DNA of 64,000 nucleotides from Candidatus Anoxychlamydiales bacterium (GTDB taxonomy: Bacteria; Chlamydiota; Chlamydiia; Chlamydiales; SM23-39). Of the stretch, positions 10,650 through 12,410 are shown piece by piece (within the stretch, counting starts at the first letter, position 1; every line of letters begins with the position of its first letter). The stretch is taken from positions 25,964 to 89,963 of the forward strand of contig JAAKFI010000001.1 in assembly GCA_011065125.1 (NCBI GenBank), read 5' to 3'. The translations under genes and the position numbers were made by a program. The notes under the pieces are model-generated. The model had not been told where the DNA came from. It made no database searches and saw nothing but the letters and a program-made list of their open reading frames with translations.

Positions 10650-12410
10650 ATGTCAGGATTTTTAAGTTCTATAAGAAATTTATTTGGGGGAACACAAACT
10701 CCCCAGGTGCAAGATGATTTAACAGATCCAGCAGCAGTAGCAGGAGTCGCTCAAAACACAACTTTAGAAAAAACAGAAAGAGCGGCTGAAGAAGTTATTA
10801 GAAGAGTGCCATCTGAAGCTGAAGCTAGTGATTCAGGTGATGAGGTATTTTATGAGGCTGTTGAATCCCCTCCTCAATCCCCTAGATATCAAGGAAGCTC
10901 TGCTTCAGAAGGGTCTAGTGTTCTATCATCTTTAGATAATGTAATGCCACCCCCTCCTGGATTTGTTTTAGCAGACCAATCATATAGAGATGAAATCAAA
11001 GACTTTTTAAGTGAATTGCCAAACTTAAACGATGAAAATAGACAAAAGCTTACTGACTTATACATTAAATATAGAGACCTTTATAAAGAATATATTGATA
11101 TTGATGATGAAGATGAGCAAATAATCACTCCAAAACAGTTATTTGATCTAATTATTTCTTTAGATGAAAGGCTTGAACTATCAAAAATTCAACTCCCTAT
11201 TGAAAAAAGAAATATAACAAAAGAAGAAGCAGATAATATATTAGATCATATTGTTTACAATTCTTTAAGATATAGAAAAGAATATACAGATAAAACTCCT
11301 GAAAACTCTCAAGACAGACAAAAAATTCTTCAAGAAGTTACAGAGCATTTAAATAACTATTATGATGTTGCATATGAAGAATATAAAGAGCAAAGAAAAT
11401 TATTTATAAATATAATTAATAATATTCTATTAAAAGATCCATCTTTAAAAGAAATAACTTTAGAAAAATTCAAAGCACATGATTTAAATCCTGATCAGAT
11501 TGATGAAAAAGTAAGTAACGAACTTCTTTTAGAAATAATTGAAAAAGTAGTTATTGATACGTTTGAAGAATTAAAGCATTGTGATTTAGATTCGCAAAAA
11601 ACAATGCTTAGAAAAATAATGGAAATTCAACGAGAATTTTTAAAATATAGAATAGCTAGTAAAGAACATAGAGAATATTTAAAAGGTTTTGAAAATGAAG
11701 ATGTTCAAGGATACTTTGCAGATAAACTTGAAGAGTTACAAAGTTTAAGATCGCAGTATGTTTATCAAGAATTTGATAGATTTGATGAGAATAAACTTAA
11801 CGTATCTGAGGATTTTAAATTAAAAAGTGAAGAAGAAATAGTCTTTGAAAAAGAAGCCGGAGAAAAAACTCCATTAGTTGAAAGCTTCAATCATTATCAA
11901 GCATCATTTGATAAAGTAGTAGAAACAATATTAGAAAAAATACAAGCAAAATCTTCAAGATTAGAAACAGTGAAAGAAAAAGAACTTGATGAAGACTTAA
12001 TAATCAGACAAAGATTATTACAAGCTGTCACTATTTTAAAAAACCTTGAAAAAGATGCATTATTACAATCAGCTATTGCTGAAGCAGCTAAGGAATATGG
12101 TATTGAGAGTTTTGATAAAATAGAAACTCAAAAGCTTAAAAATGAAGATTTAATAAGAATAATATCTTCAGTTTTTTTAAAATTACTAAAAATTACCAAT
12201 GAAAAATTAAAACAAGAATCTACTCAAATGGGAGTTAAAACAATTCTTAAAAATCAAACTATCCCAAACATTGAAAAATTAATCGAAACATTAGACTTAG
12301 AAAAAACAACAAATCTTAATAAAGATTCGACACAAGTTAAAAAAACAGATGAGTTAAAGTCATTGTTAGAAATGCTTAAAAAAAGTTATATAAAAAAAAT
12401 AGCTTATTAA
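10650..12410 (+). CDS. hypothetical protein with disordered S/P/A/E-rich N-terminus carrying an FFAT-like motif, followed by a long coiled-coil-like K/E-rich body (effector candidate)
   Basis: 586-aa ORF with no signal peptide or TM. An acidic tract SEAEASDSGDE is followed by VFYEAVE (residues 66-72, nt 10845-10865). A PPPPGF proline run follows. AGG-containing RBS-like sequence upstream. Confidence 0.6.
   Translation: MSGFLSSIRNLFGGTQTPQVQDDLTDPAAVAGVAQNTTLEKTERAAEEVIRRVPSEAEASDSGDEVFYEAVESPPQSPRYQGSSASEGSSVLSSLDNVMPPPPGFVLADQSYRDEIKDFLSELPNLNDENRQKLTDLYIKYRDLYKEYIDIDDEDEQIITPKQLFDLIISLDERLELSKIQLPIEKRNITKEEADNILDHIVYNSLRYRKEYTDKTPENSQDRQKILQEVTEHLNNYYDVAYEEYKEQRKLFINIINNILLKDPSLKEITLEKFKAHDLNPDQIDEKVSNELLLEIIEKVVIDTFEELKHCDLDSQKTMLRKIMEIQREFLKYRIASKEHREYLKGFENEDVQGYFADKLEELQSLRSQYVYQEFDRFDENKLNVSEDFKLKSEEEIVFEKEAGEKTPLVESFNHYQASFDKVVETILEKIQAKSSRLETVKEKELDEDLIIRQRLLQAVTILKNLEKDALLQSAIAEAAKEYGIESFDKIETQKLKNEDLIRIISSVFLKLLKITNEKLKQESTQMGVKTILKNQTIPNIEKLIETLDLEKTTNLNKDSTQVKKTDELKSLLEMLKKSYIKKIAY

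Follow-up and report, generated by a model that had tools for sequence, protein, structure and literature searches.

A fast-evolving, lineage-restricted protein of an Anoxychlamydiales genome carries a private FFAT-like motif in its predicted disordered N-terminal region

FFAT (for two phenylalanines within an acidic stretch) mimicry by bacteria has been established in four secreted proteins, IncV, XopM, CbEPF1, and HopN1, which form a class by function and are not homologous to one another. In this study, we analyzed a gene of 586 codons in a 64,000-nt stretch (the window) of a metagenome-assembled genome of a chlamydia of the Anoxychlamydiales, recovered from anoxic sediments of Loki's Castle. 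Its protein contains the FFAT-like heptapeptide VFYEAVE at residues 66-72. An initial annotation, made from the letters of the window, had proposed the protein as a candidate ligand of the endoplasmic reticulum (ER) protein VAP, with IncV as the model. Translation gave the open reading frame (ORF) and the motif exactly where that annotation had put them (Table 1).

IncV (CT005) is an inclusion-membrane type III substrate of Chlamydia trachomatis, and its FFAT mimic binds VAP. The serine tracts of IncV are phosphorylated by CK2, and replacement of serine by aspartate blocked type III translocation (PMC9286742, PMC6083021). IncV thus has tracts of serine where acidic ones would stand, since acids encoded in the gene blocked translocation. 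XopM, a type III effector of Xanthomonas campestris pv. vesicatoria, has motifs at residues 60-66 and 90-96, either of which suffices. The motifs are conserved in 185 sequences, and the canonical core QFYDAED was experimentally validated (PMC11631713). CbEPF1 (CBU1370), a type IVB effector of Coxiella burnetii, has two FFAT motifs with acidic flanks and an amphipathic helix, and forms contacts between the ER and lipid droplets (PMC11624262). HopN1, a type III effector of Pseudomonas syringae with a single predicted FFAT motif of score 2.0, was found to bind plant VAP12 in a screen in which AvrPtoB, with a predicted FFAT score of 2.5, did not bind VAP (PMC12411717).

The motif was scored with the penalty table of Mikitova and Levine 2012 (PMC3261905, Table S2A), which we re-implemented as the sole matrix applied. 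The published cut-off for detectable ER targeting is a score of 2 or less, that is, no more than two suboptimal elements in the core and the 6-residue upstream flank (PMC3261905). Our scorer returned four of the seven test motifs of Table 1 in that paper exactly, and the other three were off by 0.5; two small adjustments inferred from the same table account for these offsets by arithmetic, were not re-run, and leave VFYEAVE unaffected. VFYEAVE scored 1.5 in total, with penalties of 1 for V at position 1, 0.5 for Y at position 3, and 0 for the flank SDSGDE (delta 4). The strong FFAT-like motif claimed by the initial annotation was thereby confirmed under the published scheme. Core position 2, which must be F or Y in an FFAT motif, is occupied by F67. 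The segment around the motif (residues 55-88) was predicted as unstructured and non-helical, being coil with a predicted local distance difference test (pLDDT) value of ~26-33 in two AlphaFold2 runs.

VFYEAVE was the best FFAT-like motif of the window, and the second-best stretch within the protein scored 5.0. The runner-up, at 2.5, was SFEEACE after AIEENE in the adjacent NUDIX ORF (residues 43-49, 10137-10157); presumably lying inside the folded NUDIX domain, it illustrates how an FFAT-like match can arise by chance. A 703-aa ORF at 44410-46521 (+) also has a weak FFAT-like stretch, DFFSHED, with a score of 3.0. Under a model of independent and identically distributed residues, a score of 1.5 or better is expected at 1e-6 to 4e-6 per residue, which corresponds to 0.02 per window (18.9k ORF residues) and to 0.3-1.3 motifs per 1000-protein proteome. 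When residues 1-110 were shuffled 200,000 times, 0.024% of the shuffles (2.4e-4) reached 1.5. No FFAT-like motif at 2.5 or better was found in 20,163 ORF residues of six related loci, and VFYEAVE was unique at a score of 2 or better in ~39,000 ORF residues of the window and these loci together. Given the rare score and the expectation per proteome, the motif is unusual, yet within the occasional yield of a genome-wide scan.

The AlphaFold2 model, built from a two-sequence alignment, describes a soluble protein of two parts, with a disordered, motif-bearing head of ~100 residues and a helical body of ~480 residues. Residues 1-107 had a pLDDT of ~27 and were mostly coil with only a few short helices. 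The disordered-looking, S/P/A/E-rich, and GC-richer N-terminus of the initial annotation was also evident in the composition (S 13.9%, A 9.6%, E 9.6%, and P 8.7% in residues 1-115) and in the GC content, which was 0.39-0.43 in the first 300 nt of the coding sequence and 0.19-0.30 in the rest. The GC excess of the 5' end lies at codon positions 1 and 2 (0.56/0.50 compared with 0.42/0.21 in the rest), while GC at position 3 is native (0.15 compared with 0.125), and the rise is common to both orthologues described below. The rise is therefore an effect of amino acid composition, and a foreign origin of the 5' end was ruled out by the native third position. The remainder after residue 115 is rich in E (13.2%), L (13.0%), and K (12.3%), and its K/E-rich, helical character as well as the proline run MPPPPGF (residues 99-105) were as annotated. 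Only P-x-P-P of this run is conserved (MPQPPEF and IPLPPQD in the orthologues), so that no specific proline-recognition class can be claimed and the run was rejected as a GYF or EVH1 ligand. VFYEAVE itself is directly followed by SPPQSP.

The absence of a signal peptide and of a transmembrane segment, also part of the initial annotation, held as well. No signal-peptide-like N-terminus was seen in the protein sequence, and no transmembrane segment either (highest 19-residue Kyte-Doolittle mean, 0.79). Among residues 1-25, 14 are S, T, P, Q, N, or G and 2 are acidic. The spacing M-x-x-hydrophobic-L...hydrophobic-F of the short N-terminal helix is kept in all three orthologues, with M1, L5, and F12 invariant. 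The helix is a candidate secretion signal or amphipathic element, as far as its sequence pattern suggests.

Since these features can be set against those of the known mimics, we compared the protein with each of them. VFYEAVE shares with XopM the core pattern x-F-Y-[DE]-A-x-[DE] and has the same core penalty of 1.5 as QFYDAED. The motif lies in the N-terminal region of a soluble protein in both cases, and in XopM it docks the effector on VAP and tethers no vacuole. In contrast, the two proteins share no sequence homology, and XopM has two conserved motifs with serine-stretch flanks, whereas the window protein has one unconserved motif with a flank partly made of encoded acids. VAP docking is experimental for XopM and putative for the window protein. 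Like IncV, the protein has phosphorylatable serines beside the core, as had been annotated, with CK2-type sites at S55 and S62. However, IncV is a membrane-anchored tether between ER and inclusion, with two motifs in its C-terminal tail and serine tracts, whereas the window protein has no hydrophobic domain, an N-terminal motif, a mixed acid/serine tract, and no homology to IncV. The bilobed hydrophobic domain of Inc proteins (~40-60 residues) was not found, and an Inc-type membrane tether was thus ruled out.

CbEPF1 is non-vacuolar and combines encoded-acid flanks with an amphipathic helix; in the window protein, too, a short amphipathic helix is predicted at the N-terminus, together with a large second domain. 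CbEPF1 differs in its secretion system, its two motifs, and its defined lipid-droplet targeting, and no homology is known. HopN1 is alike in its single predicted motif but is a YopT-family cysteine protease. As in the eukaryotic OSBP/ORPs and CERT, a seven-residue core follows an acidic tract in an unstructured region and scores in the range that gave ER targeting in yeast assays; unlike VFYEAVE, which is private to this genome, the motifs of eukaryotic FFAT proteins are conserved among orthologues (PMC3261905). By analogy, the architecture resembles the soluble, VAP-docked XopM, HopN1, and CbEPF1 and not IncV, which was not retained as the model.

To place the protein among its relatives, we used an exhaustive phmmer search against 1.84 billion representatives, which returned one relative, P0002 (623 aa, E = 2.7e-38). 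P0002 is encoded on L001, a JGI metagenome contig, where its gene immediately follows a NUDIX gene 84% identical to that of the window. A third member (625 aa, 6648-8525 of L002, an 83-kb contig from the same sample as L001) was found through the synteny of the NUDIX homologue, and all three members directly follow the same NUDIX gene. When the protein or a two-sequence profile was used in word-indexed searches, the query itself was the sole match, and degenerate-pattern scans of GTDB genome contigs (twice) and JGI metagenome contigs (once), based on the family and NUDIX alignments, returned nothing. No paralogue was found in the window or the related loci. The protein had no significant match in Pfam, NCBIfam, or PHROGs, none among PDB sequence profiles (best E 0.51), and none by tblastn against plasmids. 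Foldseek against PDB, with a query model of pLDDT 53, gave non-significant helical look-alikes only (best E 0.22; template modelling score 0.17 or less). The initial annotation had called the protein an orphan; with two homologues, it is not a strict one.

A spurious frame or a decaying pseudogene could account for the missing family and structure matches and for a high ratio of nonsynonymous to synonymous substitution (dN/dS). This reading was effectively refuted by the orthologue comparison, and we give it practically no weight. Three intact syntenic orthologues have matching starts and ends, and the orthologue E-values are 2.7e-38 and 4.6e-45. The dN/dS is below 1, hydrophobic positions are preferentially conserved, and the strand opposite 10650-12410 has no long ORF. 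The start codon is fixed by the frame, which opens just 7 codons further upstream in all three orthologues. The two promoter matches upstream of the gene are weak evidence, as 23 promoter-like matches were found in the region and 17.8 were expected. These results indicate that the ORF is a genuine gene, confined to one small clade of Anoxychlamydiales.

The gene lies in a variable slot of an otherwise conserved Anoxychlamydiales block, whose order is OpuA-type ABC operon, DAHP synthase, small conserved ORF, NUDIX, variable slot, DeoC, fumarase, and V-ATPase operon. DAHP synthase (window 8521-9510) is present in the window and in the more distant loci L003, L004, L006, and L007, and is absent from the closest relatives, L001 and L002. 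The L002 block also lacks fumarase and YchJ; the YchJ-like gene is missing at the corresponding position of L002, and phmmer found no YchJ in L003, L004, L006, or L007. The more distant Anoxychlamydiales have no family gene between NUDIX and DeoC (Table 1), and a three-sequence hidden Markov model detected no remnants among all ORFs of L003, L004, L006, and L007. The differing slot contents and the lack of any remnant show that the gene is a lineage-specific occupant of a hypervariable slot.

We then compared the rate of evolution of the protein with that of its neighbours. Identity between the window and L001 or L002 was 33% for the protein and 73-91% for neighbours (eight genes for L002, five for L001). 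Between L001 and L002, it was 56% for the protein and 88-94% for five neighbouring genes. For the latter pair, dN/dS (Nei-Gojobori) was 0.60 compared with 0.06-0.14 in the neighbours, at a synonymous divergence (dS) of 0.50 compared with 0.32-0.50. The protein thus evolves about five times faster than the neighbouring genes. Within the gene, dN/dS was 0.76 in the helical body and 0.29 in the N-terminus. The reading frame was intact across all three orthologues (586-625 codons), and 48% of Y and 42% of L residues were invariant, compared with 9-21% of K, E, Q, and T. For the helical body, this pattern describes a folded, functional protein with a conserved hydrophobic core and a fast-changing surface. 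In chlamydiae, such a profile is typical of secreted, host-exposed, or host-interaction genes and not of housekeeping genes. Restriction to one lineage, location in a hypervariable slot, and the elevated dN/dS together form an effector-like evolutionary signature. These sequence features slightly favor the view that the protein is effector-type.

Young orphan genes, on the other hand, evolve fast whatever their function. The protein might be an unsecreted, young, lineage-specific cytoplasmic protein under weak constraint, such as a helical scaffold bearing a disordered tail, and its motif would then never meet VAP. We regard this as unlikely, although the near-neutral dN/dS of the helical body, the lack of eukaryote-like domains in the protein, and the unproven host association of the clade are in line with it. 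No chaperone or type III secretion gene was found in the window. Against a weakly constrained cytoplasmic protein, three lineages have kept an open frame of 586-625 codons in an AT-rich genome at a dS of up to ~0.9, and the hydrophobic core is conserved. In addition, a five-fold excess of nonsynonymous change over every neighbour at equal dS, in a hypervariable slot, fits a host-interaction gene.

Authentic FFAT motifs have key residues that are conserved among orthologues beyond their surroundings (criterion C of PMC3261905). We examined the motif position in the two orthologues. MAFFT aligned the window segment ASDSGDEVFYEAVESPPQSPRY to SPLSDDGINDDPTAPAIDALY and SPFDDNEIPEDPTAPEIDRLY; the acidic tract is shared at this position, and the aromatic core is absent. 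Alternative local alignments, which set Y68 on DRLYN or VFYEAVE on [AD]LFEGVE, were not significant, and none yields an FFAT motif. The best FFAT-like scores of the orthologues were 4.5 each, for GFSDLED in P0002 and DLFEGVE in the L002 protein. Since the core is absent from both orthologues under every alignment tried, the conservation described in PMC3261905 is lacking, and VFYEAVE is private to this genome. With the motif missing from both orthologues, the ancestral function of the family cannot have been VAP docking. Other N-terminal islands are conserved, namely M-x-x-hydrophobic-L...hydrophobic-F, EGS, hydrophobic-L-S-x-L-[DE], and P-x-P-P...L..Q.Y[RK]DE.

Two further islands were observed in the orthologues of L001 and L002, whose surrounding disordered region is 57% identical. 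One, [AD]LFEGVEK at residues 40-47, is the best 7-mer match to VFYEAVE, and the other is EDPTAP-x-ID-x-LY-x-K. Both are candidate linear motifs, judged by their sequence.

These comparisons bear on whether the heptad is functional. The chance that it is a functionless by-product of an acidic, Ser-rich tract, two or three substitutions away, in a protein that is effector-type or otherwise fast-evolving, is only a little short of even. The family would then work through its N-terminal helix, the EGS / hydrophobic-L-S-x-L-[DE] island, the P-x-P-P...L..Q.Y[RK]DE boundary, and the helical body. Conservation of the tract and of the other islands without the aromatic core agrees with such an origin, as do the chance expectation per proteome, the chance motif of the adjacent NUDIX ORF, and the precedent of AvrPtoB. 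However, a score of 1.5 is rare among composition-preserving shuffles and unique in the related residues, the core carries the same penalty as the validated motif of XopM, and every contextual feature of an FFAT motif other than conservation is present.

The same residues can also be read as E-V-F-Y68-E-A-V, a site of tyrosine phosphorylation and SH2 docking, with a possibly conserved [DE]-x-[FL]-Y-[EN] occurring as DALYE and DRLYN in the orthologues. Known motifs of this EPIYA type, which are usually repeated and are phosphorylated by kinases of the host, include ENEPIYESI in Tarp, EHIYDEV in Tir, and EPIYA in CagA. Each orthologue N-terminus has one or two tyrosines only, and one local alignment sets Y68 on the tyrosine of DRLYNKAL in the L002 protein. 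However, 38 of 300 shuffles score as high as this alignment, which is not significant, and MAFFT puts Y80 rather than Y68 on that tyrosine. The site is present in a single copy without repeats, and signalling through tyrosine kinases and SH2 domains is limited to few eukaryotic groups, whereas VAP is widespread in eukaryotes. A tyrosine-based function of the site is therefore very improbable.

Our best explanation is a lineage-restricted effector-type protein with allele-specific VAP docking through the FFAT-like motif, and as a whole we give it an even chance. The N-terminus would direct export through the chlamydial type III system, and the protein would act in the cytosol of another cell through the motifs of its disordered head. 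Together, the acidic/serine tract and VFYEAVE would fit into the FFAT groove on the MSP domain of a VAP from a eukaryote. The helical body would thereby be concentrated at the surface of the ER, as has been shown for XopM, HopN1, and CbEPF1. If real, this docking would have been gained recently, by this allele only, on the pre-existing acidic tract. Taken separately, it is doubtful that VFYEAVE, judged by its residues, is a working VAP ligand.

Several observations besides the lack of conservation weigh against VAP docking. A motif at 1.5 is expected about once by chance in one to three chlamydial proteomes, and the window was one of many inspected. The protein has a single FFAT-like motif, and the two redundant motifs of IncV, XopM, and CbEPF1 are not found. 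Five of the 11 flank residues are encoded acids, the kind that blocked translocation of IncV. The IncV analogy is loose, since IncV acts as a tether at the membrane, where the window protein lacks an anchor. The failure of AvrPtoB, one of two predicted motifs among confirmed Pseudomonas syringae effectors, to bind VAP shows that FFAT prediction alone is unreliable. Finally, the source sediments yielded no host and too few eukaryotic sequences, and those who described the clade suspected that it is not obligately intracellular.

Marine-sediment chlamydiae have been reported to encode a non-flagellar type III secretion system and predicted effectors. A 2026 preprint suggested that uncultured anaerobic protists are the likely hosts of Anoxychlamydiales. 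A fuller scenario is that a member of this order injects a VAP-hijacking effector into an anaerobic protist, with an FFAT ligand born de novo since the split from its closest relatives; we consider this rather improbable.

Beside a syntenic Na/Ala symporter, the related loci encode a RING-finger protein (L004/L005, 1-384, +) and a 617-aa Ser/Thr protein kinase (L002, 1-1317, -). At the equivalent position (3688-4347, -), the window encodes an orphan of 219 aa, which includes an S/P/T-rich stretch and has no match in Pfam. This region may be a second variable slot for effector-type genes. The RING finger and the kinase, recognized by sequence, are mildly supportive of eukaryote-directed proteins in the clade.

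The coordinates of the gene, its parts, and other features are collected in Table 1. Elsewhere in the window, a RiPP-like (ribosomally synthesized and post-translationally modified peptide) gene cluster at 49927-59345 (-) is unusual for a chlamydial genome. Neither of its two small ORFs has an NCBIfam match; one, ending in ...ELKELAGG/FDDVAAAQL, has the look of a leader peptide that is cleaved at a double glycine. Between the HlyD-like and methyltransferase-like genes, an Rfam group II intron match was found at 56036-56111 (-; 45.9 bits, full 77-nt model), with no intron-encoded protein near it. A 70-aa fragment in the cluster, 59454-59666 (-), matches only the C-terminal end of TnpB (IS200/IS605). 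By sequence, the intron match and this fragment look like mobile-element debris. A 914-aa protein (61237-63981, -), whose start is near the window end, is S/T/N-rich with degenerate repeats and has no Pfam or NCBIfam match; it is possibly a Pmp-like surface or autotransporter protein. ORFs of 158-703 aa without a Pfam match are present at 44410-46521 (+), 25161-26405 (-), 39909-40718 (+), and 22781-24191 (+).

Table 1. Positions of the family gene, its parts, the variable slot in related loci, and the RiPP-like cluster (window coordinates unless a locus is named).
Feature	Position	Strand	Remarks
Orphan-family coding sequence, 586 aa + stop	10650..12410	+	ATG start; NGX55803.1 / K1060chlam5_00030, "hypothetical protein" at NCBI
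Two overlapping sigma-70-like promoter matches (10/12)	10565..10601	+	In 132-bp AT-rich spacer upstream of the coding sequence
NUDIX hydrolase gene	10011..10517	+	Conserved left anchor of variable slot; 84% identity in L001 and L002; synteny
YchJ-like gene	12498..12914	+	Right neighbour within slot; then DeoC on minus strand
Disordered N-terminal region, residues 1-104, S/A/E/P-rich	10650..10961	+	Predicted; pLDDT ~27, composition, GC excess only at codon positions 1 and 2
Short N-terminal helix, residues 2-11, SGFLSSIRNL	10653..10682	+	Predicted helix; hydrophobic moment 0.46
Acidic, phosphorylatable tract SEAEASDSGDE, residues 55-65	10812..10844	+	CK2 pattern S-x-x-[DE] at S55 and S62
FFAT-like core V-F-Y-E-A-V-E, residues 66-72 (GTATTTTATGAGGCTGTTGAA)	10845..10865	+	Score 1.5; private to this genome
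Boundary element MPPPPGFVLADQSYRDE, residues 99-115	10944..10994	+	Invariant in all three orthologues: P100, P102, P103, L107, Q110, Y112, D114, E115
All-helical body, residues 105-586	10962..12407	+	Predicted helices; pLDDT 73-89 over residues 240-340; dN/dS 0.76
Slot, window	10517-12954		586-625-aa family gene (also in L001 and L002)
Slot, L007	5507-5539		Empty
Slot, L006	5504-6219		Unrelated 169-aa helical orphan
Slot, L004 / L005	6504-9790 (L004)		Small orphans (132, 131, and 74 aa in L004) and IS605 TnpB
Slot, L003	3968-4005		Synteny broken; MFS gene after NUDIX
ABC exporter	49927-52836	-	RiPP-like cluster
C39-peptidase ABC exporter	52837-55011	-	RiPP-like cluster
HlyD-like protein	55008-55850	-	RiPP-like cluster
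Methyltransferase-like ORF	56270-57244	-	RiPP-like cluster
Radical SAM/SPASM maturase	57231-58661	-	RiPP-like cluster; best NCBIfam match ACGX-system rSAM, 188 bits, below cut-off
Two tandem small ORFs	58865-59056 (63 aa), 59145-59345 (66 aa)	-	RiPP-like cluster; common W-[KE]-EFLEWGLKNEENRKRA

If the motif is fortuitous, a hypervariable slot for orphan genes within a conserved syntenic block is still documented. If the motif is functional, the protein would be another FFAT mimic beside IncV, XopM, CbEPF1, and HopN1, which would leave the concept unchanged, and the locus would offer a case in which the origin of a linear motif that mimics the host, within a hypervariable effector slot, can be dated. 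The orthologue trio, in which a shared acidic tract carries the motif in one member and lacks it in the other two, is a natural experiment on the birth of linear motifs. VAP binding, if shown, would matter more because of what it would imply about motif birth and about the association of Anoxychlamydiales with a host. If a protein that evolves fast and is confined to this lineage had a functional ligand for a receptor specific to eukaryotes, this would be molecular evidence of a eukaryotic partner for Anoxychlamydiales, and VAP could then be used as bait.

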